A stretch of DNA of 32,000 nt from Candidatus Velamenicoccus archaeovorus. Lineage in GTDB: Bacteria; Omnitrophota; Gorgyraeia; Velamenicoccales; Velamenicoccaceae. The DNA lies in assembly GCF_004102945.1 (NCBI RefSeq), contig NZ_CP019384.1, forward strand, positions 600,001-632,000, read 5' to 3'. Below, in pieces: positions 2,315 through 31,366 of this stretch (within the stretch, counting starts at the first letter, position 1; each line of letters begins with the position of its first letter). The position numbers and the translations under genes were made by a program. The notes under the pieces are model-generated. The model ran no database searches. It saw only the letters and a program-made list of their open reading frames with translations, and was not told the origin of the DNA.

Positions 2315-2355
2315 ATAGATAACCTGGAGTACTTTGAGAAATCAGGAAGGTAGAA

Positions 2356-9735: not shown

Positions 9736-9745
9736 GCCCAAAAAC

Positions 9746-10369: not shown

Positions 10370-11112
10370 GAACATCCATCGCAGCCTTTCGTCCTTTTAG
10401 CATATTTTGCGCTCTGTTGATCGTTTTTGGATTGGTCCTGACAGATGCGTTTGGAGAGTCTGCGGCTGTTAACGGCGCCGAAGATGCCATACCTTTGCGG
10501 TTGAAAACCGGCATGGTGACGCAGGCAGAGTTTCCTGAAAAGATCGCGGACGTCACTAAGAGCGTTTCTTCGGATTTCCTCGAGGTAGAGACTCTGGGCA
10601 ACAGGATGTTTTTGCTGCCGCTTAAAAATTTTGATTCTTATCTTCATGTCGTCACAGAAGACAACATCTCTTATTGCTTGCATTTGATCATGGATAACGT
10701 AGAGGCGCCTACCTGTATTGAAATTAAAAAAAGAACTCAATCCAAAGAGAAAGTCCAAGGCTATGGGGTTATGAACACGGTTGAGCTGATGAAGGTGCTT
10801 TTAAAGGGAGAAGAGCCGCCAGGGGCAGCTATCGCAGGGTCCAGCGGCCAGGAGGTCTTCAATAACGGGGTCTTCCGCATATCAACGGATAAGGTTTATG
10901 AGCTTGGAGGCGGGGCCAAAGCGCTGGTGTTGCGTTTTGAAAACCTAATGGATAAGCCCATTGTGCTGCCTATAGAGAATATAGAGCTACCGGGGTTAGT
11001 CGCAGTCAGCGTGGATGCCCAGGTTTTAGGGCCAAGGCCCCGCACCCAGGCTAAAAACAGTTCCAGTTCCATGACAAAGGCCTACATGATCATTGAGCCG
11101 CAGGATCAGTAA
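10366..11112 (+). CDS. traK: TraK/VirB9-like periplasmic T4SS protein (TIGR03749-like)
   Basis: Signal peptide (FCALLIVFGLVLTDAFG). A beta-rich N-terminal domain follows the TraK pattern (LRLKTGMVTQAEFPEKI...LEVETLGNRMFLLPLK...LHVVTEDN). ATGA overlap with the upstream gene. Confidence 0.5.
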   Translation: MRTSIAAFRPFSIFCALLIVFGLVLTDAFGESAAVNGAEDAIPLRLKTGMVTQAEFPEKIADVTKSVSSDFLEVETLGNRMFLLPLKNFDSYLHVVTEDNISYCLHLIMDNVEAPTCIEIKKRTQSKEKVQGYGVMNTVELMKVLLKGEEPPGAAIAGSSGQEVFNNGVFRISTDKVYELGGGAKALVLRFENLMDKPIVLPIENIELPGLVAVSVDAQVLGPRPRTQAKNSSSSMTKAYMIIEPQDQ

Positions 11113-11122
11113 GGAAATATCC

Positions 11123-12355
11123 ATGATCAAAATCTCGTTTAAGGGCATTCCGGGCTTTAATGTCATGGCATCGATGCTAGCTCATAAGCCGCGGCTGGTT
11201 ATTTTAGCGGCCTGTTGCTTGGCTATCGTTCTAGGATTCTTGGCTTTCACAGGCGTCAAAGAGACCAAAAACATCAAGAAAAGCCTTATAGCATCTGATC
11301 TTTCTAAGGCAAAAAACAGCCCTGAAGATAAAGATGTCGGCGTCCTTGTAGGCTCTGTGGATACCAAGACATATGTTTCCCGCATTGAAAAACAATACTA
11401 TGACATAGCCTCTCGCCAGGATAGTAGCGAAGCGCACCTGGGGCAGCTTGAAAAAGACATAGCTATCCTGCGAAAGAACCAGTCTGAGGTAAGCAAGATT
11501 GTCATGGATCTTGATAAAAGGGTGACGATTGCGCTGTCCGAAAGCATGAATTTAGGCAAGTCGGGCTCCCAGGAGAATCAGGAGGGCAGTGGTGAAGGGA
11601 TTCTGGGTAATTCGTTGTCCGGGATAACTCCCGTAAAGCCCGCGATGCGCCTGGAGATGGCTAAAGTCAATGAGATTAATGAAGAAGCCAATGCTGAGAA
11701 AAAAAGATACGTTTATCTGCCGTTGGGGAGTTTTGTCAAAGGCACTCTTTTGACCGGCGTGTATGCGCCTGTGAACGTCAATAATCCTTTGCCTGTCTTA
11801 ATCAGCGTGGACGAGGCTTTTTACGGCCCTAATAATACAAGGGTCCCCCTAAAAGGGGCTTTTGCCATTGGTAAGGCCATAGGTGATGTTGTTTCCAAGA
11901 GGGCCATTATTCAGATTGTCGGCTTTTCGATTGTGTTGCCTGGAGGCAACACTTTTGAGCATGAGGGTAACTTAGGGTATCTGACAGACGAGACCGGCCG
12001 CCTGGGTATTCCAGGAGAGCTGATTTACAACACAGGCAAGCAGTTATCTTTAAGCTTCCTCTCGGGGTTTTTGGCAGGAGGAGCTGAGGCGCTCTCTCAG
12101 GCCCAGACGACAAGCGTGGTGGGCGCCTACGGCCAGACTAGCCAGAACGTCACAGGAAACACAGGTAATTACGCCATGTTCTCAGGGTTGGCTAACAGCG
12201 CCCAGGGCATGGCCTCGTACTATCAAAAACAATTGGAGGCCATGATCCCTGCCATAAAGATCGAGGCAGGCACAAAAGTGACTTTGGTCATCCAGAAAGG
12301 AGTGGAAATTGAAGGCCTTAAAGCTTCTGTTGACGATTTCGATTATGTTGATTAG
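11123..12355 (+). CDS. traB: TraB/VirB10-like T4SS protein (TIGR03752-like)
   Basis: N-terminal TM helix (LVILAACCLAIVLGFLAF), a coiled-coil segment, and a C-terminal domain matching the TraB pattern (YLPLGSFVKGTLLTGVYAP...PVLISVDEAFYGPNN...GYLTDETGRLGIPGE). ATG 11123 with an AAGGAA RBS is preferred over TTG 11093. Confidence 0.6.
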   Translation: MIKISFKGIPGFNVMASMLAHKPRLVILAACCLAIVLGFLAFTGVKETKNIKKSLIASDLSKAKNSPEDKDVGVLVGSVDTKTYVSRIEKQYYDIASRQDSSEAHLGQLEKDIAILRKNQSEVSKIVMDLDKRVTIALSESMNLGKSGSQENQEGSGEGILGNSLSGITPVKPAMRLEMAKVNEINEEANAEKKRYVYLPLGSFVKGTLLTGVYAPVNVNNPLPVLISVDEAFYGPNNTRVPLKGAFAIGKAIGDVVSKRAIIQIVGFSIVLPGGNTFEHEGNLGYLTDETGRLGIPGELIYNTGKQLSLSFLSGFLAGGAEALSQAQTTSVVGAYGQTSQNVTGNTGNYAMFSGLANSAQGMASYYQKQLEAMIPAIKIEAGTKVTLVIQKGVEIEGLKASVDDFDYVD

Positions 12356-12713
12356 CTCCGGCTGCGCGGCTTCCCATAAGGTGGTTGTTAGCGGCGCCCA
12401 AGATAAGGTGATGGACGCGTATCTTTCAGCAGTGAGTTCAGGCAGGCGCGACTCTGCTGATTTTATAAGAGACAAGCTGAAGATTGATAAAGCATTTGGA
12501 TATGTCGCGCCTTATACGCCTGTCATCAAGCCTGCGGATGTCAGGCTTGTCTGGATCCCTGCTCATAAGTCAAAAGAGGACAAAGATACCCTGGTGGCCG
12601 GCCACTGGATATACGTCATAGTGCGGGAACCGGGTTGGTTCATCGATTCCCAAAAACAGGATAAAGCAAAGATCCCTTTATTGGTTCCTTATAAGGAAAC
12701 CAGCGCGAAATGA
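12309..12713 (+). CDS. traV: TraV-like conjugal transfer lipoprotein (TIGR03751-like)
   Basis: Lipobox MKALKLLLTISIMLISSGC. TTG start with a GGAG RBS. It sits immediately before the VirB4/TraC gene, as in F-type systems. Confidence 0.5.
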   Translation: MKALKLLLTISIMLISSGCAASHKVVVSGAQDKVMDAYLSAVSSGRRDSADFIRDKLKIDKAFGYVAPYTPVIKPADVRLVWIPAHKSKEDKDTLVAGHWIYVIVREPGWFIDSQKQDKAKIPLLVPYKETSAK

Positions 12714-15244
12714 TCAAAACCCAGACCCTTGAGTCTTTTTTTGAAGAAGGCAGGTCTTTTATAGAGCTTCTGCCTTATCACACCCATGAAAACGGCTTTT
12801 TCGTGCTTAAAGACGGAAGCCTGGGCCAGATATGGGAGATTTCGCTTATCGAAAGCGAGACTAAATCCGCAAGCCACCTGGAGGAGTTGAGCCGGTCCTT
12901 GGAAGGGATTCTCTTGAGGCTTCCTGAAGATATGGTCAGTTGCCAGGTTATCCTTGTCTGCGACAACGGAATTGGCAAGAGGCTAAAAGCATATGAGGGC
13001 CAGTCAGGTGTTTTCGACAATGAGATCATCAGAAGCTCAAGTGAGAGCAAAATAAAACACCTCGAAGAAGGTAGGCATGGATTTTTTGAACAGGCGATCG
13101 GCGCCTTCTCCTCCAAGAGGATACGCTGTTTTTTCACCCTGAGGTATTTCCCGACGTGGGTATATCCGGCCTTTGGCGATAAGGTCCGCTTTTATTTTAC
13201 AGGCAAAGATACGATCGGAAGAAAGATCGAGCAGGATTTCCTGGTTTACTGCCAGACCATTGCCAGATTCTGCGAAGTCGTCGAAGGGGTCTTTAAGGCC
13301 TCTGAGATCAGCTATTTGAAAGTGGATGAGAAAGAGTTGCATGAGTTCTTGTATTTAATGCTGAACCCCAAACACAGTCAGGGTATGAGAGTGCCTGATT
13401 TAAGGCAAGATGGATATATGGCTGATCAGGTTTTGTACAATGCGCCAAGGGTTTCAGGGGAAGGCTTCGAGTTTGAGGATAGATTATTTCAGGTCGTGAC
13501 CTTGAAAGAGCTGCCTTTAAACACAGAGCCGGGCATGTTCAGCGCTGAGATCGTCCGGGGGATGCGTTTTTCCATGCTGGATATGATGAAGGATTTCACC
13601 ATGGTGATCAACTTCCATATTCCCAGGCAGGAAGAGGCCTTAAAGAGGATCAAGATGCAGAAGGCCTTTGCCTTCCTGCAACGCTCGACGTATTTCGGAG
13701 ATAAGTCCATCGAGGCCCAGGAGAAAAAGGAAGAGCTGGATTCTGTCGTCAAAGAGACCTTCAGCTCAGGCCACAAAATCATCTATCCCCGGATTCATTT
13801 TATCGTGTCCGGCGAAAGCCAGGAGTCCTGCAATAACCTGACCGATAACATGTTGAACGCTTTGTCTCGTATGGGTGCCGAGGGCTTGAAAGAAGAGATC
13901 ATCGCCGGATCACTTTTCTTATCATGCCTGCCTTTATGCTTCGACCATCATTATGAAAAATTCATCAAGCGCACCAGGCGTATAGTTTCAGACAATCTTG
14001 CCGACATGCTTCCATTGTACGGATCGGTCCGCGGGACCCAGGCGCCGGCCCAGCTGTACTTAAACAGAAGAGGCGAGCCTGTGTTCTGGGATTTTTTTGA
14101 TTCCAACACAAACCCGCACACGATTGTCATCGGCGCCTCAGGCTCAGGCAAGAGTTTTTTCGTGAATGACTTCATTCTTCAGAACGCGCGCCTGGATTCG
14201 CATTTCTTTGTTTTGGACAAGGGGGATTCCTATAAGAAGCTCTGTTCGGTCCTAGGTGGCCAGTACATAAGGTTTGAGCTCAATGATCCCGTGACCATCA
14301 ATCCTTTCTTAAAAGTGCCTGACGCAGAACACTTGGCGTTCCTGGTGACGATGCTCTCCCAGATGTGTTCAGGCGGCGATGAAAGGGAAAGGTTGTTGCG
14401 CGAACACGAAGGCGTGCTTCAGCAGGCGATCTTGGCCGCCTATAAGGGCAAGACCAAAGATCAGGAACTGGTCCTGTCGGATGTGGTTGAGAAGCTTAAA
14501 AGCCACAGCTGCAACAGGAAACTCGGGGTTGGCGAAAGCATCGGTATAAAGCTTGCCCTGAAGCTCAGGTCTTTTACCAAGGAAGGTCCTTTTGGCAAGT
14601 TCTTCGACGGGAAAAATCAGTTCAGCCTTGGCGCCAAGTTTACTGTCTTTGAGCTGGGGAATTTAAGCTCACATCAGGACCTGCAGGTGGTGGTTCTTTT
14701 GAACATCATGTATTTCATCACGCATTTTGTCTCGCAGTCCGAAATGAAGCCCAAGCGCAAATTTCTGCTTATAGATGAGGCCTGGAGTTTACTCAAGCTC
14801 CAGAACACGGCTGACTTCATCACCAATTCGTTTAAGACCTATCGCAAATACAGGTGTTCCTGTTGCGCCATAACGCAGGAGATCACGGACTTAATAGGAA
14901 AGGAATGCGGTATTGCCATCCAGGCCAACGCAGCCAACAAGGTATTTTTAAAGCAGGAGCCTAATGTCATTGACTCCCTGAGAGGCTTTGCATCGTTGTC
15001 CGATAAGGAAATTGAGCTCTTGAAGTCCGTTGAGACCCAGAAGGGGAGGTTCTCGGAGGCCCTCATGATTTCGGATTCATCCCGCGGCGTCATCCGTCTT
15101 GTGCCCGATCCTTTTCTTTACTGGCTGGCCACAAGCGATGCCAAGGACAACGCCTACCTGGAGGAGAAGGTGAAAAAATTCGAAGGCAGGTATTTGGAGG
15201 CGCTTTCAGAATGCGCCAAGGAGAAACCTTATGGCTTACGCTAG
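12710..15244 (+). CDS. traC: T4SS ATPase TraC/VirB4 family (TIGR03744-like)
   Basis: 844 aa. Walker A VIGASGSGKSFFV and Walker B KFLLIDEAWSLL. ATGA overlap with the upstream lipoprotein gene. Confidence 0.85.
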   Translation: MIKTQTLESFFEEGRSFIELLPYHTHENGFFVLKDGSLGQIWEISLIESETKSASHLEELSRSLEGILLRLPEDMVSCQVILVCDNGIGKRLKAYEGQSGVFDNEIIRSSSESKIKHLEEGRHGFFEQAIGAFSSKRIRCFFTLRYFPTWVYPAFGDKVRFYFTGKDTIGRKIEQDFLVYCQTIARFCEVVEGVFKASEISYLKVDEKELHEFLYLMLNPKHSQGMRVPDLRQDGYMADQVLYNAPRVSGEGFEFEDRLFQVVTLKELPLNTEPGMFSAEIVRGMRFSMLDMMKDFTMVINFHIPRQEEALKRIKMQKAFAFLQRSTYFGDKSIEAQEKKEELDSVVKETFSSGHKIIYPRIHFIVSGESQESCNNLTDNMLNALSRMGAEGLKEEIIAGSLFLSCLPLCFDHHYEKFIKRTRRIVSDNLADMLPLYGSVRGTQAPAQLYLNRRGEPVFWDFFDSNTNPHTIVIGASGSGKSFFVNDFILQNARLDSHFFVLDKGDSYKKLCSVLGGQYIRFELNDPVTINPFLKVPDAEHLAFLVTMLSQMCSGGDERERLLREHEGVLQQAILAAYKGKTKDQELVLSDVVEKLKSHSCNRKLGVGESIGIKLALKLRSFTKEGPFGKFFDGKNQFSLGAKFTVFELGNLSSHQDLQVVVLLNIMYFITHFVSQSEMKPKRKFLLIDEAWSLLKLQNTADFITNSFKTYRKYRCSCCAITQEITDLIGKECGIAIQANAANKVFLKQEPNVIDSLRGFASLSDKEIELLKSVETQKGRFSEALMISDSSRGVIRLVPDPFLYWLATSDAKDNAYLEEKVKKFEGRYLEALSECAKEKPYGLR

Positions 15245-15683
15245 GAGATTTTTTATTTTATTGTTTCTTCTGTCATTGGCCGGCTGCTGCAGTCTTGCTT
15301 CAAAAGTCAAGAAGGAAAGCGATTATGAACAAGGCTATAGAGTCGGCGTCAAAGAAAATATCCATGATTTTGCGCAAAGCTTCTACGGCAATGAGTTCCC
15401 TTATTTTTACTGGCAGAGCCCCATTGTCCAGAATGTAGTCATGCCAGCTCATATTGAAAATGGAATATTCATCCCTGAACACAATGAGCTGGTCATGATT
15501 GAACCGGGCCAATGGAGAAAGAGATTCGGCTACTCGATCAGGGGTGCGAAGAATAAGTCGGACAAAACAGAAGGAGAGGATTATGCGCTCAAGTATTTTG
15601 ATTTTGATAGCAGGGATATTACTGTGTTTCCCGAATCCTACGCAGGCGATAAACCAGGAAACGAAGTCAAAGATTCTCGTTAG
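15231..15683 (+). CDS. small lipoprotein next to the secretin (candidate pilotin / PilL-position protein)
   Basis: Lipobox FILLFLLSLAGCCS. 150 aa. Overlaps traC by 14 nt, and the inferred secretin start by 101 nt in a different frame. Confidence 0.45.
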   Translation: MAYARRFFILLFLLSLAGCCSLASKVKKESDYEQGYRVGVKENIHDFAQSFYGNEFPYFYWQSPIVQNVVMPAHIENGIFIPEHNELVMIEPGQWRKRFGYSIRGAKNKSDKTEGEDYALKYFDFDSRDITVFPESYAGDKPGNEVKDSR

Positions 15684-17127
15684 CGAGTGGCAAGCGGCAA
15701 AATCAGATGCCGGCGTTTCCGGGGATAAGCAAATCTCAGCGGCCGCAGACGAGGTTAAAAAAGATACGAAACCGGCTGGATTGCCGCCAGTCTTCTCAAA
15801 AAAGATCACCTTGAGGGCAAACAGTGTCAGCATAAGGACGATCTTAGGCAGGATAGGCGAGTTGACAGGATTGAACGTGGTTTATGACCCCGAATTCAAC
15901 TCAGATACGGTCGTGGCCCTGGATGTACAAGATGCGTCCATATGGCAGGTGCTGAGCGACGTCCTTTTTCCCTTATCAAGCAGCTTCAAGGTCAAAGACA
16001 AAAGTCTCATCATCGTCGCCAGGGAAACCCGGGTCTTTAAGCTGAGTTTGCCTCCGGGGAGCCAGGATTTTAGCGATACGGTGAGCAATGAGTCGTGGAC
16101 GAATCCGGAAGGCAATACCTCAAACAACACAGGAACTTTGTCCGGCGCCACCTCCAATATGAGCGTCAAAGTAGGCGCCAAGGTCTTTGTGGAAACCAAG
16201 GAGGGCAGCATCTCTTTCTGGAAGGATATGGAGACCAACCTTTCGAAGATGATTTCTGCAAGAGGAAAATACTCTTTTAACAAGCCTGCGGGTTTAGTCG
16301 TGGTTTCGGATAATCCGATCTGCCTGGACGAAATAGGCCGATACATTGACCTGGTCAACGCCGAAAGCAGCAAGCAGATATTGATTGAGGTCAAGGTGCT
16401 GGAAGTGAGCTTATCCCGACAGAATGCCGGCGGCATAGACTGGAATGCCATCTATAAGAACTTGGCCGGTATCAAAAAACTGACCCTCAGCTCTAATTTT
16501 ACGGGTCAGAGCATCGCGTCAGGAAGTCTTTTTACCTTGAGTGCGGCCAGTCCGAAGGATGATTCGGGAACCGGATCAAACGGTTTAAGCGTCTTGATCC
16601 AGGCGCTTGAAAGCCAAGGGAAGGTTGAGGTGATTTCGCAGCCCAAGGTCATGCTTTTGAACAACCAGTCCGCCATGGTCCAGGTCGGGACCGTGACGAG
16701 TTATGTTTCCAACACGACGACCACAGCCACACAGGCAGGCTTGGTGGCGACAAGCGCCAATACGGACCAGGTCCAGGAAGGCGTGACTTTAAGGCTTATG
16801 GCCAGTATTCGGCATGACGAGATCCTCGTGCAGCTGACTCCCGTGGTGACGACCTTGGATCAGATCAGGAGTATCAGCATGGGGAGCGGTGTTACCATAG
16901 AGGCGCCTAAGACGTCCACCCGGTCCATGCACACGCTTGTCAAGATCAAGGACGGCCAGACCATCGCTGTCGGCGGCCTGATCACATCCAATGACACCAA
17001 AAGCAAGCAAGGCATACCCGTTTTAAGCGAGCTTCCATTCGTGGGGAGGCTCTTTGAGTTTAAGAATAAATCCCTGACCAGGACCGAGCTGGTCATCTTT
17101 ATTACTCCTAAAATACTGCCGCGATGA
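15583..17127 (+). CDS. secretin (type IV pilus / T2SS outer-membrane channel, PilN/PilQ/GspD family)
   Basis: Signal peptide MRSSILILIAGILLCFPNPTQA after a GGAGAGG RBS. N0-like domain (ITLRANSVSIRTILGRIGELTGLNVVY). C-terminal secretin domain (LIQALESQGKVEVISQPKVMLLNNQSAMVQVGT ... DGQTIAVGGLI...GIPVLSELPFVGRLFEFKNK...ELVIFITPKIL). Confidence 0.85.
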   Translation: MRSSILILIAGILLCFPNPTQAINQETKSKILVSEWQAAKSDAGVSGDKQISAAADEVKKDTKPAGLPPVFSKKITLRANSVSIRTILGRIGELTGLNVVYDPEFNSDTVVALDVQDASIWQVLSDVLFPLSSSFKVKDKSLIIVARETRVFKLSLPPGSQDFSDTVSNESWTNPEGNTSNNTGTLSGATSNMSVKVGAKVFVETKEGSISFWKDMETNLSKMISARGKYSFNKPAGLVVVSDNPICLDEIGRYIDLVNAESSKQILIEVKVLEVSLSRQNAGGIDWNAIYKNLAGIKKLTLSSNFTGQSIASGSLFTLSAASPKDDSGTGSNGLSVLIQALESQGKVEVISQPKVMLLNNQSAMVQVGTVTSYVSNTTTTATQAGLVATSANTDQVQEGVTLRLMASIRHDEILVQLTPVVTTLDQIRSISMGSGVTIEAPKTSTRSMHTLVKIKDGQTIAVGGLITSNDTKSKQGIPVLSELPFVGRLFEFKNKSLTRTELVIFITPKILPR

Positions 17128-18302
17128 ACTACCTCATTCTTGATTCAGACATTTATTACGAGACAGGCGAAAAGTCCGGAAGGATATCCGGGCAGGATAT
17201 CGGGACGGTTTTTACCGGCGAGGACAAGACCGTCTCGGTTGCAGTTGTAGAGACCCTTCAAAAACACCTGGCCGCACCCCAGAAGGATACCTTCAGCCGT
17301 GACCAATTGATAGCCGAAAGCTTTGGCTCCGAATACGTCACGCAGTCAGAACAGATAGGGAATAACTTCTTTCAGGTCATTGCCATTGAGAAGGCCAAGG
17401 TCAACGAGATCTACAAATGTCTTGGTTTTGAAAACGTCCGGCGTATTGTTCCTTACGCTGTGGCTTTGAGGGAATTCCTAAAGATCAACAATCTCTTGGA
17501 TGTCGAAAAAAGGGTCATTTTCCTGGATTACCTGAACCCTACGGTGCTTTTGACGATTTTCCACGAAGACGCATTTACCACACCCAGGCGCCTTGCCTTA
17601 AACAACCGCATTCCAATAGAAATCACGCGCAGCCAGGAGAACTACAGGAATCTCAATAAGGACGCAAACGGTGTTGATTTTCTGATTATCACCAATTCAA
17701 AGGACATTAAGGATAAGATTGTTGCAAGCGGCCTTGAGGCCAATGAAAATATCACTCTGGTTAAGGATCCTTATCCGGCTTTGACAGGTCTTAGGCAAGG
17801 CAAATTCAGCATGCACTATCTCCTGCCCGAGCAATTTATCCGCCTAAGGCGGGCAAAAGAGATAAAGAAGCGTTTCCTGAGCCTCGGAGTTATGGCTGCA
17901 ATTCTTAGCGTATTTCTGGCCGTGTTTGCTGTCTCATTTGGCATTAATAAGGACAGGAGGCTTGCATTAAAGGATTTGCAGCTCAAAGAGCGGTCCGAAA
18001 GCGAAAAGTTAAAACAGGCTTATACGGCAAAATACAGAGATATGGTCAGACGTGGAGTGAAGATCAATTTCGACGATTACCTCGAGTCCTTTATTAACGC
18101 GGTACCTGATGAATACAAGATAGAGTCCATTGTCATGAGGAAAATATCATCCGGAGTTTTTCGGTTTGAGGCGGTTGTGTTGGCAGATGATGATAGGTCC
18201 TGCTCTGCTTTCGTCCTGCCGCAGCATTTCAGGCAGGCCAAGACAGAGAATATTCTGGTCAAAAGCAATCCCGGAGTTCGTGTGATGTTGGATATCTTCT
18301 AA
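17124..18302 (+). CDS. GspL / PilM-PilN-fusion-like bitopic assembly protein (IncI PilO position)
   Basis: A cytoplasmic domain of about 260 aa, a single TM helix (FLSLGVMAAILSVFLAVFAVSF), then a periplasmic domain of about 110 aa. ATGA overlap with the secretin gene. Confidence 0.45.
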   Translation: MNYLILDSDIYYETGEKSGRISGQDIGTVFTGEDKTVSVAVVETLQKHLAAPQKDTFSRDQLIAESFGSEYVTQSEQIGNNFFQVIAIEKAKVNEIYKCLGFENVRRIVPYAVALREFLKINNLLDVEKRVIFLDYLNPTVLLTIFHEDAFTTPRRLALNNRIPIEITRSQENYRNLNKDANGVDFLIITNSKDIKDKIVASGLEANENITLVKDPYPALTGLRQGKFSMHYLLPEQFIRLRRAKEIKKRFLSLGVMAAILSVFLAVFAVSFGINKDRRLALKDLQLKERSESEKLKQAYTAKYRDMVRRGVKINFDDYLESFINAVPDEYKIESIVMRKISSGVFRFEAVVLADDDRSCSAFVLPQHFRQAKTENILVKSNPGVRVMLDIF

Positions 18303-18321
18303 ATGGAAGGAGGTGGAATCA

Positions 18322-18549
18322 ATGTCGATTTATTACGGAAAACTCAGCCGCAAAGTTGGCAAGGAGGGAAAAGAATACTTTGTGGGTCGGGCAGGCGGGA
18401 TCCCTGTCAGGGCAGCCTGGGGAAAAAAGAAGGAAGACGACATCTGCATCTTTTTGGATGTCGATAGGATTAATTTCCTGGCAAAGGGCGAGAAGGCAAA
18501 TGGCGCCGGCGAAGAGGCAGGTGCCGGGGCAGAGGAAAATCAGGCGTAA
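18322..18549 (+). CDS. small hypothetical protein (weak DUF736-like pattern) with an acidic Gly/Ala/Glu tail
   Basis: 75 aa with a GGAAGGAGG RBS 8 nt upstream. AGGIPVRAAWGKKKEDDICIFLDVD loosely resembles the DUF736 core (AGG..iGAAWkK......yLsvkLDD). Confidence 0.35.
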   Translation: MSIYYGKLSRKVGKEGKEYFVGRAGGIPVRAAWGKKKEDDICIFLDVDRINFLAKGEKANGAGEEAGAGAEENQA

Positions 18550-18562
18550 TGATAAGTCGAAG

Positions 18563-18605
18563 AGCTCATCCGGTGCGTTTAGGGCCGGATGAGCTTGGAG
18601 GTTTT
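18563..18605 (+). terminator. perfect 11-bp hairpin inside the pilus operon (terminator or attenuator)
   Basis: AGCTCATCCGG (18563-18573) pairs with CCGGATGAGCT (18585-18595), followed by TGGAGGTTTTT. Confidence 0.4.
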
Positions 18606-18620
18606 TAAGAAAACAAAGCC

Positions 18621-19106
18621 ATGAAAACTATCACATTTCTTTTTGCGGCGGCAATTTTGTTTTTATCCATAAAAATATGGGGCCTTGACCAGGACTCGAG
18701 CCTGCTTAATATCCGGCTAAAAAAAGCCCGGGAAGAGATCAGGGCGATCGTTCTGAAACAAAACAGTCTTAGCGTCTATAGAGATGAGCCAGCCCTGCCT
18801 TTGGACCAATGCTATCTGCAAGTTTACAACGACATCAAGGAAATAGCCGCCTACTACGATGAGATCTGTGATGTCAAGATCGTCGGAGCCAAGGAGCTGG
18901 TGGCTATAAAAGAGTTTTCTAAGCCGTCTGGCTATGAAGGGATAAGATATCTCGACGTCCTTAGCCGGTTTACTTTAAGTGAAAAGACAGGGCATTCTTT
19001 GTTGTGCATGTTTTATGGCTTAAGCCAAGCCGGGCCGATGGAGATCCTGGGGGTTGATATGGAAAAAAATATTGTTACTCTGACCATGCGTCTTTACGGG
19101 ATTTAA
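18621..19106 (+). CDS. PilO/GspM-like inner-membrane assembly protein
   Basis: 161 aa. N-terminal TM helix (ITFLFAAAILFLSIKIWG), a short coiled coil, then an alpha/beta domain. Size and position fit GspM/PilO. Confidence 0.4.
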   Translation: MKTITFLFAAAILFLSIKIWGLDQDSSLLNIRLKKAREEIRAIVLKQNSLSVYRDEPALPLDQCYLQVYNDIKEIAAYYDEICDVKIVGAKELVAIKEFSKPSGYEGIRYLDVLSRFTLSEKTGHSLLCMFYGLSQAGPMEILGVDMEKNIVTLTMRLYGI

Positions 19107-19123
19107 GAAAGGAGGATCTCCTC

Positions 19124-19744
19124 ATGAGAAAACTTTTGATTTTATCTCTAATCTTCGTCTTCGGTATGGGCTTAAGGCTTGTTTGGGCCAGCGACGATAA
19201 CCTTCTGGCTGTGGATGTCTCTCGTCAGGAGAAAAAAATTCCTCCGCGGGAAAACAAGGTCTTTTCGACACAAGAAACGCCCAAGAATAGTGCGTCTGTT
19301 GTTTCGGGGCAGAGGGATGAATTTGCCAAAGATTTGGAAAAAATAAAGGCTTTCCATGAAGCGATGAACGACAAGCGTCATGCCGTAGAGATGATCCGGC
19401 TCGATCTTGAGAAAGAGAGTCTTCTCTTGAAGGAAAAACAGGCTCAGAAGCAGATATACGACATCGACAACAGTCTGCCGTTGGTTAAAAAAGAGGAGTT
19501 TCAGAAAAGTGATCTGTCGGGAGGGCTCAAGGTTTCCGGGGTTGATCCTTCGGATGTCAGGCTCTTGATGATCGTGATCGCCGGAGGCCTGAAAGAAGGG
19601 ATTCTTACTTTGAAAGGCACGCCCTACAGGTTCAAAGAAGGCGATTGTGTCGCCTCAAAGCTGACTGTCTCAAAGATCACAAGGGATACGCTTACGCTCA
19701 AGCAGCCGGATCAAACGGAATTTACGCTGAACTTCATGGATTAA
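19124..19744 (+). CDS. PilP/GspC-like assembly protein
   Basis: N-terminal signal/anchor (LLILSLIFVFGMGLRLVWA), a coiled-coil linker, and a C-terminal beta-domain (ILTLKGTPYRFKEGDCVASKLTVSKITRDTLTLKQ) like the PilP/GspC HR domain. Confidence 0.4.
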   Translation: MRKLLILSLIFVFGMGLRLVWASDDNLLAVDVSRQEKKIPPRENKVFSTQETPKNSASVVSGQRDEFAKDLEKIKAFHEAMNDKRHAVEMIRLDLEKESLLLKEKQAQKQIYDIDNSLPLVKKEEFQKSDLSGGLKVSGVDPSDVRLLMIVIAGGLKEGILTLKGTPYRFKEGDCVASKLTVSKITRDTLTLKQPDQTEFTLNFMD

Positions 19745-19747
19745 AAC

Positions 19748-21388
19748 ATGGCTATAGAGAAGATAGGCGATATCCTCCTTAAAGCCCGCAGCGTCACAAA
19801 AGAAGAGCTGGACTATTGTTTTGCGATCCAGAAGGGCCTAAAGACGGATGAGAAGATAGGTAAGATCCTCAGGTATTTTAACTTTACAACAGACAAGGAG
19901 ATCGCCTGTGCCCTTGCCTATCAGGTAGGGTGGAAGTATTTTGACAAGAAATACGTGATTGACCTTGAGACAATCGATGGGATCGGTCTTGAGTTTTTCA
20001 AGCAAGAATCTTTTGTTCCTGTGAGGACTGACGAAGGCCTGGCGTTTGTCTTTGCGCATCCTTTTGCCGTCGCTGCCACGGATTGTTTGTCGAAATACGG
20101 CTTAAGTGATAAAGACTGCTACGTTGGCAGCGAAAACCAGGTCCGTTATCACCTCGATTGTCTTTCCAACCGCAAAAAGGCGGCCGAGATAGAAAAAAAG
20201 ATAGGCCTTATTAAAGAGCAGGGTCTCATCGGCAATGAGCTTAAGGAATTGGCGGACGCTCTTCTGGATGAAGCGATCATCCAGGGCGCAAGCGATATCC
20301 ACATCGAGCCTGAGGAAAAGATAAGTACGGTGCGTTTCAGGATCGACGGGATGCTTTATTTTCGGCTGGCGATCCGACCCGATGTGCACAATAATCTTGT
20401 CAACATCATATTCAGCAAGGCGGATATCACGGTCAGCGATTTTTTGAAGTTCCACGATGCCAGGTTCCAGCACAACTATTCAAACCACGCGGTTGATGTC
20501 AGGGTCTCCTGCATTCCTTCGTCCCACGGCCCGGCCCTGGTGCTTCGTCTCCTGGACGTCACGAGGTCGCTCATCACTTTGGAACAGCTGGGATTTGACA
20601 GGACGCATTTTGATTGCATACGACGCATTGCGCAGAAGCCACACGGCATTATCATCATGGCCGGTCCCACAGGATCAGGCAAGACAACGACGCTTTATGC
20701 CATCTTAAACGAGCTTAAGTCCGTCTCAACGAAGGTGATCACGATCGAGGACCCGGTGGAGATAAAGATGCCGCTTGTCAATCAGGTCCAGATTAACGAG
20801 AAGCAGGGCATCACGTTCGCAGGCGCCACCCGAGCTTTTTTGAGGCATGATCCAAACATCATCTTGATCGGGGAGATTAGGGACAGGGATACAGCCCAGG
20901 AAGCCATCCGTGCAGCCATTACAGGCCATAGGGTGCTTTCGACATTGCACACGAACACGGCCGTTGATTCTATTTACAGGCTTCATGACTTAGGGGTTGA
21001 TCTGCCCTATATCTCAAACAGCATTTTGGCTGTTATCTCGCAAAGGCTGATCAGGAAGCTATGCTCATCCTGCAAGAAGAAAGTCACGGTCAAGAAAGAG
21101 AAGTGGCCGGCATTCTTTAAAGAACAATTCAAGGAAGACAAAAGCGAAATCCGCGCCTACAAAGCCGTCGGCTGCGACCATTGCCAGGCAGGTTACAAAG
21201 GCCGCACTGTCATTGCGGAGATTCTGGAGTTTGATCCGGAGATTAAAAGCATAGTTGCGTCAGGACGACTCGAGTCACTTCATGATAAAGAGAGGCAAAA
21301 GTCGCGCCTTGACCTTGGCCAGGATGCAGCCAGGCTTATTCTTTGCGGCGTGACCTCTTTTGAAGAGGCAGAAAGGATCATCGGATAG
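19748..21388 (+). CDS. type IV pilus / T2SS assembly ATPase (PilB/GspE family)
   Basis: T2SSE_N-like N-terminus (IGDILLKARSVTKEELDYCFAIQK...KIGKIL). Walker A GPTGSGKTTT. Asp/His boxes (IGEIRD, VLSTLHTN). Tetracysteine motif CSSCKKK...CDHCQAGYKGR. Confidence 0.9.
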   Translation: MAIEKIGDILLKARSVTKEELDYCFAIQKGLKTDEKIGKILRYFNFTTDKEIACALAYQVGWKYFDKKYVIDLETIDGIGLEFFKQESFVPVRTDEGLAFVFAHPFAVAATDCLSKYGLSDKDCYVGSENQVRYHLDCLSNRKKAAEIEKKIGLIKEQGLIGNELKELADALLDEAIIQGASDIHIEPEEKISTVRFRIDGMLYFRLAIRPDVHNNLVNIIFSKADITVSDFLKFHDARFQHNYSNHAVDVRVSCIPSSHGPALVLRLLDVTRSLITLEQLGFDRTHFDCIRRIAQKPHGIIIMAGPTGSGKTTTLYAILNELKSVSTKVITIEDPVEIKMPLVNQVQINEKQGITFAGATRAFLRHDPNIILIGEIRDRDTAQEAIRAAITGHRVLSTLHTNTAVDSIYRLHDLGVDLPYISNSILAVISQRLIRKLCSSCKKKVTVKKEKWPAFFKEQFKEDKSEIRAYKAVGCDHCQAGYKGRTVIAEILEFDPEIKSIVASGRLESLHDKERQKSRLDLGQDAARLILCGVTSFEEAERIIG

Positions 21389-22606
21389 ATGCACTACAAA
21401 TATAGCGTCCTTTCACAGACCGGCAATGAGATAAGCGGCACCGAACAGGGCTCTTATCAGGCGATCAGAGACAAGCTAAAGAATAACAATTTTCACATTT
21501 TGTCCCTGGAGCCTGATCTTATCAAGTCCATCGAATTTTATCTGAAAAGAAAACGAATCAAGGCCCAGGCTCTGGCTGAACTTTTTGAGGACCTTTCGAA
21601 TACCCTAGAAACCGGCCTGAGCATGAATGAGGCTATTATGACGCTTGAGGAATCCTCAGTCGAGCCTGTCTTAAAGGAGGCCCTTTCACGGATCAATGCC
21701 AGTCTTTCTAGGGGCGCTTCCTTGACTGAGGCTTTCAGCCGGACAGAAGTCTTTCCCTGGCAGGTTCTCAATATGGTCCGGGTCGGCGAGAAATCCGGAG
21801 GCCTTGAGCGCGTATTCAGGGATCTGGCAGGCTATTTTTCCAGGGAAGCGGACTTTTTACGCAGCTTAAAAGGCGCCTTGGTTTATCCTGCGGTCGTCTT
21901 CTGCCTGCTTGTCGTTGTCATGTTCTATGTTTCTTTCCAGGTGATTCCGCACTTGGAGGCACTCCTGCCGATAAAGGAAAACGCCTGCTTTGCCACGCGC
22001 CTGCTTTTGTCTTTGAGCCATGGCCTGAGGTATTATTGGTTCATGTATTTGGCCGTGCCTGTTGTTTTGGCCTTCTTTTATTCGAGGCTTAAAGTAAGCC
22101 AGGTCGAGCGTATAAGGGATTTTTATTACAGGATTCCAGTATTAGGCCCCTTGATAAAAGACGTGGCTTTCAGCTTTTTGTTCTCTAACCTTGCGATCCT
22201 GCAAAGAAACGGCATCAGCGTCATCGAGGCCCTTTCCCTGGTTCGCGATACATCTTTTGACAAGTTCTTTGCCGAAAAGATTGCCAAAGTTAAGGATACC
22301 GTTATCAGTGGGTTAAGCCTTTGGCAAGCCTTAAAGCGCGATGCGTTTTTTCCCAAGCCTGTCTGCTCAAGCATCAGAAAAGGCGAGGAGATGGGCAACC
22401 TTGACAAATATCTCGAGAGCCTGGCGGATTCATATTTCAAGAAGGTGACGAGGCGCATCGATGCGCTCTTGGGTTTTATCCAGCCGGCATTTTTGATGCT
22501 TTGCGGGCTTCTTCTCTTATTCATCGTGTGGGCGTTCGTCATACCGGTCTACAGCAATCTTTCGAATATAGCGGGTGGGAACCAAATTCTAAAAGGAGGT
22601 GGGTAA
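21389..22606 (+). CDS. type IV pilus / T2SS platform protein (PilC/GspF family)
   Basis: 405 aa with a duplicated GspF-type repeat (LSNTLETGLSMNEAI.. and LAILQRNGISVIEAL..) and three TM helices. Starts one base after the ATPase stop. Confidence 0.85.
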   Translation: MHYKYSVLSQTGNEISGTEQGSYQAIRDKLKNNNFHILSLEPDLIKSIEFYLKRKRIKAQALAELFEDLSNTLETGLSMNEAIMTLEESSVEPVLKEALSRINASLSRGASLTEAFSRTEVFPWQVLNMVRVGEKSGGLERVFRDLAGYFSREADFLRSLKGALVYPAVVFCLLVVVMFYVSFQVIPHLEALLPIKENACFATRLLLSLSHGLRYYWFMYLAVPVVLAFFYSRLKVSQVERIRDFYYRIPVLGPLIKDVAFSFLFSNLAILQRNGISVIEALSLVRDTSFDKFFAEKIAKVKDTVISGLSLWQALKRDAFFPKPVCSSIRKGEEMGNLDKYLESLADSYFKKVTRRIDALLGFIQPAFLMLCGLLLLFIVWAFVIPVYSNLSNIAGGNQILKGGG

Positions 22607-23031
22607 TGAGGAACAAGAAAGGGTTCACGTTGATCGAACTGGTTCTGGTCATCAGTATCATCGCGCTCTTGATTATGGCCGTGGGTCTGGCGTCTGGCGT
22701 CAGGGAAAACGCCAAGATCCACTCAGCCGCAGAGTCCGTTAAGTCTTTAAGGACGGCCGCGGAAAGCTACATCGCTTCAGGTAATATGACGTATGAAGGG
22801 ATCGTAATTTCCGGATTACAAACTGCAGGCTATTTACCCGAGAGTTTTTCGCCGACAGGGTCAAATCCGTGGGGAGGGGATTATACGGTTATGCCTAATG
22901 CGGATCCCAACAAGGTGGATATCTCCTTGACACAGGTCAGCGAGTCGGGGGCGGTGCGACTTTCTGCTTTGTTTGCCAACAGCGCGACAGCAACAAGCTA
23001 TTCTTCCGGAACATGGACCGCGACATTCTAG
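22606..23031 (+). CDS. type IV prepilin (likely major subunit)
   Basis: Class III signal MRNKKG/FTLIELVLVISIIALL (Gly-1, Phe+1, Glu+5). AAAGGAGG RBS. The ATG overlaps the upstream stop (TAATG). The ORF-track start at 22501 is rejected. Confidence 0.85.
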   Translation: MRNKKGFTLIELVLVISIIALLIMAVGLASGVRENAKIHSAAESVKSLRTAAESYIASGNMTYEGIVISGLQTAGYLPESFSPTGSNPWGGDYTVMPNADPNKVDISLTQVSESGAVRLSALFANSATATSYSSGTWTATF

Positions 23032-23483
23032 AAACTGAGGGTTTCAGCTTAATTGAGCTGAGCCTTGTTTTCGCGATAGCTGTCATACTTCTGGGGGTGG
23101 CTTTTTATTCTGCTGCCAGAATGAGACAGGCTGTTTTGGCCAAAAAAACGATCCAGGAGATGGATGTCTTGGCGGATGCAAGCGTTCAATATTATCTGGG
23201 GAACGGGGCGTGGCCGCAGGATGCGGCGGACCTGCGGCCCGCCCACCTCAGTCCTGAGGCAACGGGCATTAATCCTTTTGGCAATGTCTATACCATAACA
23301 GGCGGCGTCTCAAGCGTCACTATTTCGACAGCGCTGCCAAAAGGGCTCATAATGTCTGAAAATTTTGGCAGTGAGATTGTGGTTCAGAATCAAGGCGCCA
23401 ATGATCTGGTTAGCGTCACAAGATCCGTTGAAAGCACGGCGTGGGGATTGCAGTATGACAAGAAGAATATCTTTCATCAATAA
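23013..23483 (+). CDS. type IV minor prepilin / pseudopilin
   Basis: MDRDILETEG/FSLIELSLVFAIAVILLG prepilin signal with Glu+5. Confidence 0.7.
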   Translation: MDRDILETEGFSLIELSLVFAIAVILLGVAFYSAARMRQAVLAKKTIQEMDVLADASVQYYLGNGAWPQDAADLRPAHLSPEATGINPFGNVYTITGGVSSVTISTALPKGLIMSENFGSEIVVQNQGANDLVSVTRSVESTAWGLQYDKKNIFHQ

Positions 23484-24288
23484 AACGGGATTTTCCTTAA
23501 TCGAGCTGTGCATTGCGATGGGGGTTTTGGCCATTCTTGCCTCATCCATCACGCCGGTCTTTATCAAAAGGGTTCAGATTAAGGCAGCGGAAAAGACCGC
23601 GCTTGAAATGGCGAATATCCAGCAGGCAGCTTGCGCTTATTTCATTTCAAACGACGCATGGCCCGACAATATCCAGGTTTTAGGAGCCGCAGGCTATATC
23701 AATCCCGACTGGACGGCGAATAATCCCTGGCAAAATGCCTATAACATTTCATCGACGGCTACAGGTTTTAGCGTAACGACTATTGTGCCTCAGGAATGGA
23801 CCGGTCTGGTCGCAAGAAATCTGCCTACGAGCTCGGTATCTGGAGGATTTGTAACAAGCATGGTTTCGGTGCCCGGGGCTATGTTAAATGAATCGCTTCC
23901 CGCAGGTGCCATTGTCATTTGGTCTGGGACTGTTGCAAGTATTCCTTCAGGATGGCAGCTCTGTGATGGGACCAATGGCACGCCTGATTTAAGGGACAGG
24001 TTTGTGGTTGGGGCAAGCCAGGATGTGGGAAACATGCCAGAGACTAATGTTTCAGGGGTTTTGACCAAGACAGGCGGAGAGGCCAAACATACCATGACCA
24101 TTGCCGAAATGCCGCCGCATTCGCACTCTTACCGCTGGTGGAATGCATGGTATTTTTCAGGAAGCAGCGAGCTGGGTGCAAAAGGCACCTACGATGACAA
24201 CCACCAGACAAGCGTGGTCGGCGGTGGGCAGCCCTTCAATGTGCTGCCGCCTTATTATGCTCTATGTTTTATCATGAAGATGTCTTAA
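23455..24288 (+). CDS. prepilin fused to a C-terminal phage tail-collar (receptor-binding) domain; candidate pilus-tip adhesin
   Basis: MTRRISFINKTG/FSLIELCIAMGVLAILA prepilin signal. The C-terminus PAGAIVIWSGTVASIPSGWQLCDGTNGTPDLRDRFVVGA...GGEAKHTMTIAEMPPHSH...GGGQPFNVLPPYYALCFIMK matches the phage tail collar / MdpB-type signature. Start ATG 23455, not 23365. Confidence 0.75.
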   Translation: MTRRISFINKTGFSLIELCIAMGVLAILASSITPVFIKRVQIKAAEKTALEMANIQQAACAYFISNDAWPDNIQVLGAAGYINPDWTANNPWQNAYNISSTATGFSVTTIVPQEWTGLVARNLPTSSVSGGFVTSMVSVPGAMLNESLPAGAIVIWSGTVASIPSGWQLCDGTNGTPDLRDRFVVGASQDVGNMPETNVSGVLTKTGGEAKHTMTIAEMPPHSHSYRWWNAWYFSGSSELGAKGTYDDNHQTSVVGGGQPFNVLPPYYALCFIMKMS

Positions 24289-25135: not shown

Positions 25136-25187
25136 TGGTTTATCCTCCTTCTTTGTGGCAATATAAATATAACATATAGTACACACA

Positions 25188-26114
25188 TTGTCCATACAAA
25201 ATTTAAAATACTTCAGGATGGCCATTATCTTGGTTTTATTGCTGGTTCTGTGCTTTGTTTGCGGCAGGGCATATGCGCTTGAGCTTAGCGATATCCCAGG
25301 GATGATCGATTGGAGTTGTCTGGATTTAAAAGTCATCGGGACCTGCGTCGGGCCTTTCGGCATCCCGGGCATTGTCATTATGTACTGGGAGCCGGCGCTT
25401 CTCATCGAAACCGTCAAGCAGCCCGGCGATACGATTATCGGATCGCTCAAACCCGAATTCCAGAATCTTACGGCCCAGGCAGTCAAGAATTTTGCCAAAA
25501 GCATCGCTGGATCATCCATACTTGCTTCCAGCGGATCAGGCTCATCAAAGATAGAGGAGACAAACTTGCAGTTCAACGAGGCGCATGTGTATGCGTTTCC
25601 TTTTGGGGATGAAATCATGATGTCTTTAGGCATGACGTGTCCGGACAAGCTTCCAACAGGCTTTTTTATTAAATATCTTTCGGAGCTCGATTCTTTGGAG
25701 TGGCGCATAGGAGTCACGGAAGTCCTGAATCCCAAAAGCATGGCTTCAGCTGCAAGCGGACCGGCCTGCGCTGCAATATCCGGTTTTATGGAGGACTTGT
25801 GCATGGGGTATTGGGGAGCAACTTACCCCAGGCGAGGCTTCTTTACGCACCAGAGCCAGGTCGTAGGAAGCGCGGCCGCGGCTATCCGGGCTGTGAGTAT
25901 TGCTTCAGCTCTCAATGTCCCAGGACACGTTGTCTTAGAGACAACGGGGTTTGTGCCGTCTTTTGGAAATGACAAGCTGCAAATGATTTATCCGGTTGTT
26001 TCTGGATGCATCAAAATAGGCCAGAATCCGGCACTCTGGGAATCCGGAAAATTATCCGCAAACGGCAAGTACCTATGGGTCTACTGGAGAAGAAGAATAT
26101 GCTGCGTGTATTAG
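25188..26114 (+). CDS. traU: TraU-like T4SS periplasmic protein (TIGR03756-like)
   Basis: Signal peptide (AIILVLLLVLCFVCGRAYA). Cys-rich (WSCLDLKVIGTCVGPFG, MTCPD, GPACAAISGFMEDLCMG, SGCIKIG). Position before the DUF1525/TraF/TraH-like genes. Start is TTG 25188 or ATG 25218. Confidence 0.5.
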   Translation: MSIQNLKYFRMAIILVLLLVLCFVCGRAYALELSDIPGMIDWSCLDLKVIGTCVGPFGIPGIVIMYWEPALLIETVKQPGDTIIGSLKPEFQNLTAQAVKNFAKSIAGSSILASSGSGSSKIEETNLQFNEAHVYAFPFGDEIMMSLGMTCPDKLPTGFFIKYLSELDSLEWRIGVTEVLNPKSMASAASGPACAAISGFMEDLCMGYWGATYPRRGFFTHQSQVVGSAAAAIRAVSIASALNVPGHVVLETTGFVPSFGNDKLQMIYPVVSGCIKIGQNPALWESGKLSANGKYLWVYWRRRICCVY

Positions 26115-28759: not shown

Positions 28760-28810
28760 AAAACCTTCGTGTGGCAGAAAGTATCTGCTGTGCGAAGGTT
28801 TTTCATTTTT
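28760..28810 (+). terminator. rho-independent terminator after the transfer operon
   Basis: AAAACCTTCG ... CGAAGGTTTT outer stem with an inner GCAGA/TCTGC stem, followed by TTTCATTTTT. Confidence 0.6.

Positions 28811-30690: not shown

Positions 30691-31366
<676 letters not shown>

Follow-up and report, generated by a model that had tools for sequence, protein, structure and literature searches.

The window analysed here, a 32,000-nucleotide stretch of the Candidatus Velamenicoccus archaeovorus genome (phylum Omnitrophota; contig NZ_CP019384.1, positions 600,001 to 632,000), contains an F-like type IV secretion system (T4SS) module in which a cluster of type IV filament genes (the pil cluster, 15231-24288) is nested between the conjugation genes traC (12710-15244) and traU (25188-26114). 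Given that the nesting is kept in dozens of Omnitrophota elements, the two envelope machines are inherited as one unit, and they are probably expressed as one unit as well. On a slight balance of probability, we regard the locus as an Omnitrophota-specific F-like conjugation module, in whose mating-pair-formation operon a dedicated secretin-dependent pilus has become fixed, replacing the stabilisation by TraN and by the C-terminal half of TraG (TraG-C).

Pilus genes between traC and traU

A map of open reading frames (ORFs) combined with protein family scans revealed 11 genes between traC and traU, all on the same (+) strand. An initial annotation, made from the sequence alone, had placed a filament cluster at 15231-24288. 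These coordinates proved correct, and the secretin, PilB/GspE, PilC/GspF and prepilin genes it listed were confirmed by domain matches, weakly so for pilin 2; the "ten genes" that it announced are 11 by its own list. The cluster, in gene order, is as follows:

15231..15683, +, 150-residue lipoprotein with an LAGC lipobox (sequence)
15583..17127, +, secretin with a signal peptide (PF00263, E 3e-37, 128 bits)
17124..18302, +, 392-residue protein, predicted PilM-PilN fusion (AlphaFold2 model, Foldseek)
18313..18549, +, small soluble protein of 78 residues, 70-78 in the family (conservation)
18621..19106, +, 161-residue bitopic protein with an N-terminal membrane helix (sequence; 34-72% conserved)
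19124..19744, +, 206-residue exported or anchored protein, conserved in relatives (C-terminal beta domain weakly GspB/PilP-like)
19748..21388, +, assembly ATPase of the GspE/PilB family; tetracysteine motif, MshEN-like N-terminus (T2SSE PF00437, E 3e-107, 359 bits)
21389..22606, +, GspF/PilC platform (T2SSF PF00482 in two stretches, E 9e-47, 159 bits)
22606..23031, +, pilin 1, major prepilin of 141 residues, 6-residue leader, MRNKKG/FTLIE (N_methyl, PilS)
23013..23483, +, pilin 2, 156 residues, …ETEG/FSLIE, conserved (sequence)
23455..24288, +, pilin 3, 277 residues, pilin domain followed by a phage tail-collar/gp10_C-like C-terminal domain (Pfam, alignment)

Direct reading of the sequence showed that traC, whose product matches PF11130 and PF19044, overlaps the lipoprotein gene by 14 nt, and that the lipoprotein ATG lies within traC and is preceded by an AAGGAGA ribosome-binding site. 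A single nucleotide is shared by the stop codon of the platform gene and the start codon of pilin 1 (TAATG). A larger overlap, of ca. 100 nt (15583-15683) in different frames, joins the lipoprotein gene to that of the secretin; it is unusually long and is kept across the family, at the same place in all relatives. The initial description of the cluster as nested in the transfer operon thus stands as far as physical and translational embedding is concerned (the 14-nt traC overlap), while it has to be amended at the 3′ end, where the cluster does not abut traU (product matching PF06834) in this window, a GNAT/TacA toxin-antitoxin pair being located in between.

The relatives considered below are metagenome-assembled genome (MAG) or metagenome contigs, and individual loci are designated by L and a number. 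Homologues of the 392-residue protein number 191, and those with a name belong to Omnitrophota, except for one labelled Deltaproteobacteria and one unclassified bacterium; the family was met solely beside this T4SS. A scan of one genome per species retrieved 17 loci, each from an Omnitrophota MAG or from an ENA bin with the label Planctomycet-, and a metagenome scan with TraC alignment contributed 80 further loci. In tblastn searches with all window proteins, every sufficiently long relative had the gene order traE-K-B-V-C, lipoprotein, secretin, 392-, 78-, 161- and 206-residue proteins, ATPase, platform, pilins 1-3, traU, 201-residue protein, traF and traH. After removal of duplicates, 56 distinct 3′ junctions of traC could be counted, and 54 of them lead directly into the lipoprotein and secretin genes, at TraC identities from 95% down to 47%. 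The nesting noted initially in a single stretch of DNA is therefore conserved in relatives, far beyond what chance would produce. One of the two exceptions, L096, is uninformative: a RelE-type toxin-antitoxin pair stands behind traC, and the contig then ends in repeats. In the other, L094, traC is followed by unrelated genes, and this locus may be truncated or a genuine exception.

The identity of the pil gene products to those of the window follows TraC identity (Spearman coefficients 0.68-0.83) as tightly as that of TraB does (0.71), which indicates that the pilus and T4SS halves diverged together. No near-identical DNA was found in plasmids or E. coli genomes, and tblastn against plasmids retrieved distant matches only (at most 28% identity for TraC and 41% for the ATPase). 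As far as seen, the family is confined to Omnitrophota.

Composition of the filament and its putative tip

The filament was classified by comparison of hidden Markov model (HMM) and PDB scores. Among NCBIfam models, the secretin scored 223.6 bits with MshL (cut-off 250.2), 163.3 bits with type IVb PilN (TIGR02520; cut-off 287.65), 143 bits with GspD and 125 bits with PilQ; its PDB matches rank BfpB, GspD, PilQ. For the ATPase, the NCBIfam scores of 382.6 bits with GspE (cut-off 630) and 381.7 bits with PilB (cut-off 676) are both below threshold, and PDB comparison gave 307 bits with GspE, 253-271 with PilF/PilB and 129 with type IVb BfpD. The platform has GspF as its top family, at 210.7 bits, under the cut-off of 424. 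Within residues 5-59 of the ATPase (window 19748-19930), a 24-residue MshEN-like motif occurs twice in tandem (KIGDILLKARSVTKEELDYCFAIQ, KIGKILRYFNFTTDKEIACALAYQ); the family matches are weak (MshEN, 19.8 bits against a cut-off of 23.1; NF053729, E 3e-4), and K stands where R is usual. Though K replaces R, the motifs could provide a cyclic di-GMP input.

The lipoprotein, 36-93% identical among relatives, has no match in Pfam or NCBIfam and is a candidate pilotin or PilL analogue. The 392-residue protein also gave no Pfam or NCBIfam match. Its AlphaFold2 model (predicted local distance difference test score, pLDDT, 68) consists of a cytoplasmic actin-like domain, one long membrane/coiled helix and a small periplasmic alpha/beta domain, and the top Foldseek matches are PilM structures (3jc8_Ma, 5eou; E 7e-6 to 1e-5, with low TM-scores of 0.23-0.29). 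Judged by this model, the protein is a PilM-PilN fusion of GspL/MshI-type architecture. The 78-residue ORF is a real gene, kept (45-90% identity) in all relatives with TraC identity of at least 60% and absent from the deep clade described below; neither its product nor the 161-residue protein matches a Pfam or NCBIfam family. In the family of the 206-residue protein, sub-threshold T2SSB matches were obtained for all four members matching it (E 0.003-0.16), next to a TcpS match (E 0.016).

A class III signal, G/F(T/S)LIE, is present on all three prepilins (…NKTG/FSLIE in pilin 3), and N_methyl matches were obtained for pilins 1 and 3. Pilin 1 exceeds the cut-offs of both N_methyl (32.5 bits) and PilS (PF08805; 26.3 bits, cut-off 22); despite the PilS match, its leader is type IVa-like, with 6 residues and F at +1. 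It is 74-94% identical in relatives with TraC identity of at least 68%, and the same 74-94% is seen among elements with TraC identities of 71-89%, an unusual degree of conservation for a major pilin. Pilin 2 has only a weak match to the prepilin motif (TIGR02532, E 0.058), and the N-termini of pilins 1 and 2 weakly match GspG and GspH. No protein of the cluster matches the PilL (conj_PilL) or PilV families of Pfam and NCBIfam.

The cluster is not "complete", as it was first called: no module ORF matches a prepilin peptidase (Peptidase_A24-type), and a PilT-type retraction ATPase is not present among the module genes. Since the leaders are short, with G/F at the cleavage site, and no peptidase is encoded, the prepilins would be processed by the PilD of the host. 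Nearly all Omnitrophota have type IVa pilus systems of their own (PMC10066038). The initial annotation had also judged the accessory set to be more similar to type II secretion systems (T2SS) and type IVa pili than to R64. This is the case for the ATPase, by the GspE and BfpD scores given above (307 versus 129 bits), for the platform and for the PilM-like fold, and it is not the case for the secretin (MshL, PilN, BfpB), for pilin 1 (PilS) or for the gene order, which is R64-like. By its sequences, then, the filament matches no named subtype and is a mosaic.

Pilin 3 stands apart by its C-terminal part. Pfam assigned the Collar family to 31 of the 35 homologues examined and Gp10_C to 11 of them. 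In the alignment of these 35 sequences, a conserved pilin domain is followed by the motif IWSGTVASIPxGWQLCDGTNGTPDLRDRF, by ca. 100 hypervariable columns and by a conserved end, LPPYYALCFIMK. The top Foldseek match of the AlphaFold2 model, which like that of the 392-residue protein is of moderate confidence (pLDDT 70), is the tail fibre of Pseudomonas phage Pa223 (E 4e-6, TM-score only 0.15-0.18), and gonococcal pilin matches the N-terminal half of the model. We therefore consider pilin 3 a putative tip adhesin. Its variation occurs between elements; shufflon-type inversion repeats were sought near the pilin 3 gene and none were found, and no PilV-N match was obtained.

The putative transfer module, its borders and its deep-branching relatives

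DNA homology with relatives extends over the whole module, starting at 3159 and stopping at 28615, so the conserved module comprises the genes from TraG_N through TraH (25 kb). Upstream of traC, the genes are arranged in the order TraG_N, Replic_Relax/MobC-like, TraD-like coupling protein, VirB2-like pilin, TraL, Imm_superinfect and NYN-domain, followed by TraE, putative TraK, TraB and TraV. The order on the downstream side is TraU, the 201-residue protein, TraF/TrbB-like protein, TraH, a hairpin terminator and a type I restriction-modification system. The features outside the pil cluster are:

3184..4557, +, VirB6-like protein with a TraG N-terminal domain, first module gene (Pfam TraG_N, 53.4 bits, cut-off 36.1)
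4822..5586, +, Replic_Relax/MobC-family protein, weak match (Pfam, 24.2 bits against a cut-off of 25.3; NCBIfam MobC_subf, E 3e-6)
5508..7847, +, type IV coupling protein, TraD/VirD4-like (TraG-D_C, TrwB_AAD_bind and T4SS-DNA_transf above cut-off)
7910-8233, +, VirB2/TrbC-like conjugative pilin (weak Pfam TrbC match, E 0.0035)
8233-8541, +, TraL (weak Pfam match, E 0.003; 18.2 bits against a cut-off of 24.4)
8483-8713, superinfection-immunity family gene (PF14373), overlapping the end of traL, conserved in the module
9734..15244, +, TraE, putative TraK, TraB/TrbI, TraV and TraC/VirB4 (Pfam TraE, TrbI, TraV, TraC_F_IV, P-loop_TraG)
24355-24867, -, GNAT toxin (Pfam)
24860-25141, -, TacA antitoxin (Pfam)
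25188..28613, +, TraU, 201-residue protein, TraF/TrbB-like protein of thioredoxin fold, and TraH, with which the module closes (Pfam TraU, TraF, TraH; NCBIfam)
28760..28802, +, strong terminator-like hairpin with a 19-bp stem and a T run behind it, 3′ of traH

TraC, TraU, TraH, TraF, TraE, TraB, TraV and TraG_N all pass their Pfam cut-offs and make up an F-type set, with TraH having an ICE-family model (TIGR03755; ICE, integrative and conjugative element) as its top NCBIfam match. Two F-type components are missing. The TraG protein aligns to positions 319-458 of the 922-position NCBIfam TraG model only, the C-terminal, mating-pair-stabilisation half of F TraG being absent, and Pfam and NCBIfam scans of the module ORFs gave no match to TraN. 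The coupling protein matches TraG-D_C with 43.5 bits (cut-off 22) and SXT_TraD as its top NCBIfam family; the Replic_Relax/MobC-like gene, possibly encoding a DNA-processing accessory protein to judge by its weak family matches, is conserved in relatives having the coupling protein. The VirB2-like pilin and TraL are 70-94% conserved in relatives. The 248-residue "TraK" matches no Pfam or NCBIfam family and is labelled from its position, and the 201-residue protein is weakly TraW- or thioredoxin-like (TraW, E 0.006). The PF14373 gene could, by its family, have an entry-exclusion function.

The GNAT/TacA pair between pilin 3 and traU was found only in the window and its relatives of 79-89% identity, and the gap between the two genes is 6-90 nt in most other loci; the pair is thus a recent, lineage-specific insertion. 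A promoter-like site for the pair (25194-25166; TGGACA, 17 nt, TG-TATATT) overlaps the start codon of traU, so that expression of traU-traH would need antisense read-through of the pair or a new promoter. The promoter scan, which found 18 sites compared with 20.0 ± 4.5 in shuffled sequence and hence no excess, was relied on for this site only.

A further variable spot lies between the Imm_superinfect gene and traE. An NYN-domain gene located there (window 8842-9516; L053:6188-6859; L065:1-489; L083:326-997) is 92-94% identical between elements whose TraC proteins are only 70-73% identical, and in other elements the same spot holds 4-5 kb of different cargo. Such a pattern suggests a hot spot for cargo that is exchanged among elements. 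The traH terminator region (28720-28809) reappears in the cargo spot of another element (L084:4145-4232, 77% over 92 nt) and may be a small repeated element. The type I restriction-modification system to the right of the module occupies 29110-31877, its specificity gene being split into two ORFs with one Methylase_S match apiece (30671-31366 and 31563-31877).

Outside the module, the flanks are unrelated between genomes, with radical-SAM and GGACT genes in the window versus a FeoB-like gene in L088. The left flank (window 1-3158), encoding a B12-binding radical-SAM protein and a gamma-glutamyl cyclotransferase-like protein, is without homology in any related locus, and the left border is marked by a rise in G+C content, which is 33-39% before it and 44-50% after it. 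No tRNA gene was found in the 32-kb window. An identical TraC is recorded on a contig of 1,974,201 bp, and the module is therefore chromosomal. Some MAGs contain two or three diverged copies (L013, L014 and L016 in one MAG; L018 and L020; L009 and L021), which fits repeated acquisition or mixed bins. Differing flanks, fixed start and stop points and several copies per MAG together indicate a mobile element within the 1.97-Mb chromosome-sized contig.

A deep clade of loci (L024, L026, L027, L093 and L105; TraC identity 47-51%) has the T4SS core (TraG_N-like, VirB2-like, TraL-E-K-B-V-C) and the pil genes among housekeeping neighbours, which are also found directly upstream. L024 and L027 share their flanks, with a tetratricopeptide repeat protein and a pilin upstream and kdtA and lpxK downstream, and the two loci differ in these flanks (KdtA 65%, LpxK 63% identity) about as they do in the module (TraC 67%, ATPase 64%). 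L026 is located beside thrS-infC-rpmI-rplT, and L093 beside nrdB-like and hemH-like genes. Two genes of the clade are split: a DUF1016/YhcG gene interrupts the platform gene of L026 (18141-20392), and in L027 (12847-14383) the secretin is encoded in two ORFs; this may be due to decay or to assembly error. Another locus in the same range of TraC identity, L089, has a coupling protein. The deep-clade locus may be a domesticated, non-mobile version of the T4SS-pilus module.

Proposed role, alternatives and known systems

In the conjugation module that we favour, the pil genes would share the traC transcript, which, in the ancestral layout, would run on into traU-traH. The ATPase, the platform, the PilM-PilN fusion and two bitopic partners would polymerise pilin 1 through the secretin, probably with the assistance of the small lipoprotein. 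Pilin 3, and perhaps pilin 2, would be located at the pilus tip, and the variable core of the phage-tail-collar-like receptor-binding domain of pilin 3 would decide which cells are bound. One can expect such a pilus to catch and hold recipients in place of the absent TraN/TraG-C stabilisation, a role in mating that may be analogous to that of the thin pili of R64, TP114 and PAPI-1.

Several observations weigh against this scheme. No canonical relaxase, oriT, integrase or attachment sites were found within the 32-kb window, beyond which the element may extend, and DNA transfer by the module is thus not demonstrated. The hybrid apparatus envisaged in the initial annotation is an overstatement, no result here pointing to physical coupling of the two machines. 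In the window, the presumed single transcript is interrupted by the GNAT/TacA pair on the opposite strand. Two of the presumed assembly proteins have provisional assignments: the 161-residue protein is PilO/GspM-like by topology and position only, and the 206-residue protein PilP-like by topology, position and sub-threshold matches. Finally, several deep-clade loci have no coupling protein within their 10-kb flanks, and a pilus accompanied by a T4SS without a visible coupling protein hints at a non-conjugative role in at least part of the family.

This last observation can be taken further. Omnitrophota are predicted epibionts or predators, and the T4SS and pilus may form a composite cell-contact machine, serving mainly for attachment to a host or prey cell and for delivery or uptake, conjugation being its ancestral function or just one of its functions; docking of the pilus via its tail-fibre-like tip would be followed by movement of protein or DNA through the T4SS channel. 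We consider this unlikely. It would account for deep-clade loci that are intact, lack a coupling protein upstream and have housekeeping flanks, and the parallel divergence of flanks and module in L024 and L027 is as expected for a vertically inherited, selected locus. The many host-interaction traits of Omnitrophota (PMC10066038) were also counted in its favour. However, the window and all relatives with TraC identity of at least 60% and a visible upstream region have both the coupling protein and the MobC-like gene, and these relatives show the differing flanks and the several copies per genome of mobile elements. In the deep clade itself, the absence of the coupling protein is established within 10-kb flanks only, with L089 having one, shared flanks could also be produced by site-specific integration, and the split genes could mean decay or assembly error. 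The broader proposition that a T4SS core with a pilus is a composite machine ancestral to much of Omnitrophota, domesticated for docking plus transfer or uptake in the vertically inherited, coupling-protein-free loci, likewise strikes us as unlikely.

The filament could instead be a T2SS-like exporter with a short pseudopilus, secreting a protein for mating or for the host cell, a reading to which we give only a small chance. The ATPase and platform indeed have GspE and GspF as top families, pilins 1 and 2 are weakly GspG/GspH-like, the 392-residue protein is GspL-like, and weak T2SSB matches occur in the 206-residue family. Yet all T2SS equivalog scores are far under cut-off (GspD 143/351, GspE 383/630 and GspF 211/424 bits), and the secretin is MshL/PilN/BfpB-like rather than GspD-like. 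Five pseudopilins, GspG-K, would be expected, whereas there are three pilins, with no match to GspI, J or K beyond the N-terminal motif, and pilin 1 passes the PilS model. The large hypervariable receptor-binding-type domain of pilin 3 makes sense on an exposed fibre tip, and the module has no conserved candidate substrate gene. That a pil island recently entered the traC-traU gap of a single element by accident, without functional meaning, we regard as hardly conceivable. This gap does take insertions (GNAT/TacA), and other intergenic spots of the module hold variable cargo, but the pil genes occupy the site in 54 of the 56 junctions at TraC identities of 47-95%, they are translationally coupled to traC and have diverged together with the tra genes, and the 392-residue family occurs only in this context. 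A one-off insertion was therefore rejected as the cause of the nesting, on the grounds of the junction count and the co-divergence.

The favoured conjugation module would lend itself to studying the co-assembly of two large envelope machines, and it suggests that a phage-like receptor-binding pilus tip can stand in for F-type TraN/TraG stabilisation. Its carriers, very small and probably host-dependent bacteria, belong to an uncultured phylum whose gene-transfer machinery is barely described, and the module may be their main conjugation apparatus. In the relatives without a coupling protein, the T4SS-pilus machine may have been domesticated; if real, this composite machine would benefit an epibiotic or predatory way of life and not selfish conjugation. 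The main Omnitrophota surveys treat type IVa pili, Tad pili and T2SS-like loci and do not discuss conjugative T4SS.

Compared with known filaments, the pil cluster differs from type IVa pili in that the PilQ (125/284 bits) and PilB (382/676 bits) scores are below cut-off, PilM is fused to a PilN-like part and there is no PilT. It resembles the mannose-sensitive haemagglutinin (MSHA) pilus in having MshL as the top match of its secretin (below cut-off), the MshEN-like N-terminus of the ATPase (likewise below cut-off), the MshI/GspL-type fusion and short prepilin leaders; it differs from it in gene order, in having three pilins only and no MshM/MshN-type genes, and in that all equivalog models score below cut-off. 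The R64 plasmid (NC_005014) offers a parallel in layout: its pil cluster likewise encodes a lipoprotein, a secretin, proteins of ca. 400 and ca. 150 residues, an ATPase, a platform, a major pilin and a tip adhesin in this order (pilL-N-O-P-Q-R-S-V). It also lies inside the transfer region, on the same strand, between traBCD and rci/traE, so that the initial annotation's mention of R64 pil as a separate cluster needs qualifying. The secretin is 29% identical to PilN, and pilin 1, as said, passes the Pfam model of PilS. In contrast, the ATPase is only 30% identical to R64 PilQ (130 bits), being much closer to GspE/PilB, and the 392-residue family has no detectable homology to R64 PilO2 (hhalign probability 0.1%); PilM, PilT and PilU genes, a shufflon and rci are absent here, and the leaders are short, with G/F. 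Full-text literature searches found no published description of this nested T4SS-pilus layout, and the lack of detectable PilO2 homology and the distant PilQ place the filament outside the described ICE pil clades, as had been suspected at the outset.

The T4SS part shares a probable TraL, TraE, B, V, C, U, F, H, TraG_N and a TraD-like protein with F-type mating-pair-formation systems (MPF_F: F, SXT/R391, Desulfosarcina BuS5 plasmid), and the order traL-E-K-B-V-C is the same. It differs from them in the missing TraN and TraG-C and in its TraC, at most 25-28% identical to any TraC of the plasmid database; its TraW and TrbC are uncertain. The closest T4SS in the plasmid collection, that of the Desulfosarcina plasmid (TraC 25% identical), continues from traL-E-K-B-V-C into traH and traG and has no pil genes. 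Compared with R64 and IncI2 plasmids, the T4SS is F-like rather than MPF_I, and the pil cluster is located amid core T4SS genes and translationally coupled to traC. In ICEs of the PAPI-1/pKLC102 type (MPF_G), a type IV pilus (pilL-pilV2) promotes transfer; its genes form a separate, R64-like type IVb cluster, and the T4SS is of the G type. IncI1 R64 (pilI-pilV) and IncI2 TP114/R721 are plasmids whose type IV pili serve conjugation, and their tip pilins are variable C-terminally, as is pilin 3; for R64 PilV and the TP114 tip pilin, the variable C-terminus sets recipient specificity in conjugation (PMC9045228, PMC9881135). A PilV-phage tail collar (PF07484) fusion, proposed to be a repurposed phage receptor-binding module, has been described among the pilus genes of one bacterial genome (PMC9881135). 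Like pilin 3, it joins a pilin N-terminus to a tail-collar domain amid pilus genes, whereas its N-terminal domain is that of a shufflon PilV subject to programmed inversion, and pilin 3 has neither a PilV-N match nor an inversion repeat. The recruitment of type IV pili for mating is thus already known from R64, TP114 and PAPI-1, where the pilus is a separate genetic module. What is new is the location of pil genes amid structural genes of the T4SS core and their translational coupling to traC, in an F-like context lacking TraN and the C-terminal half of TraG, together with a mosaic filament, a putative tail-collar adhesin and conservation throughout an Omnitrophota family.

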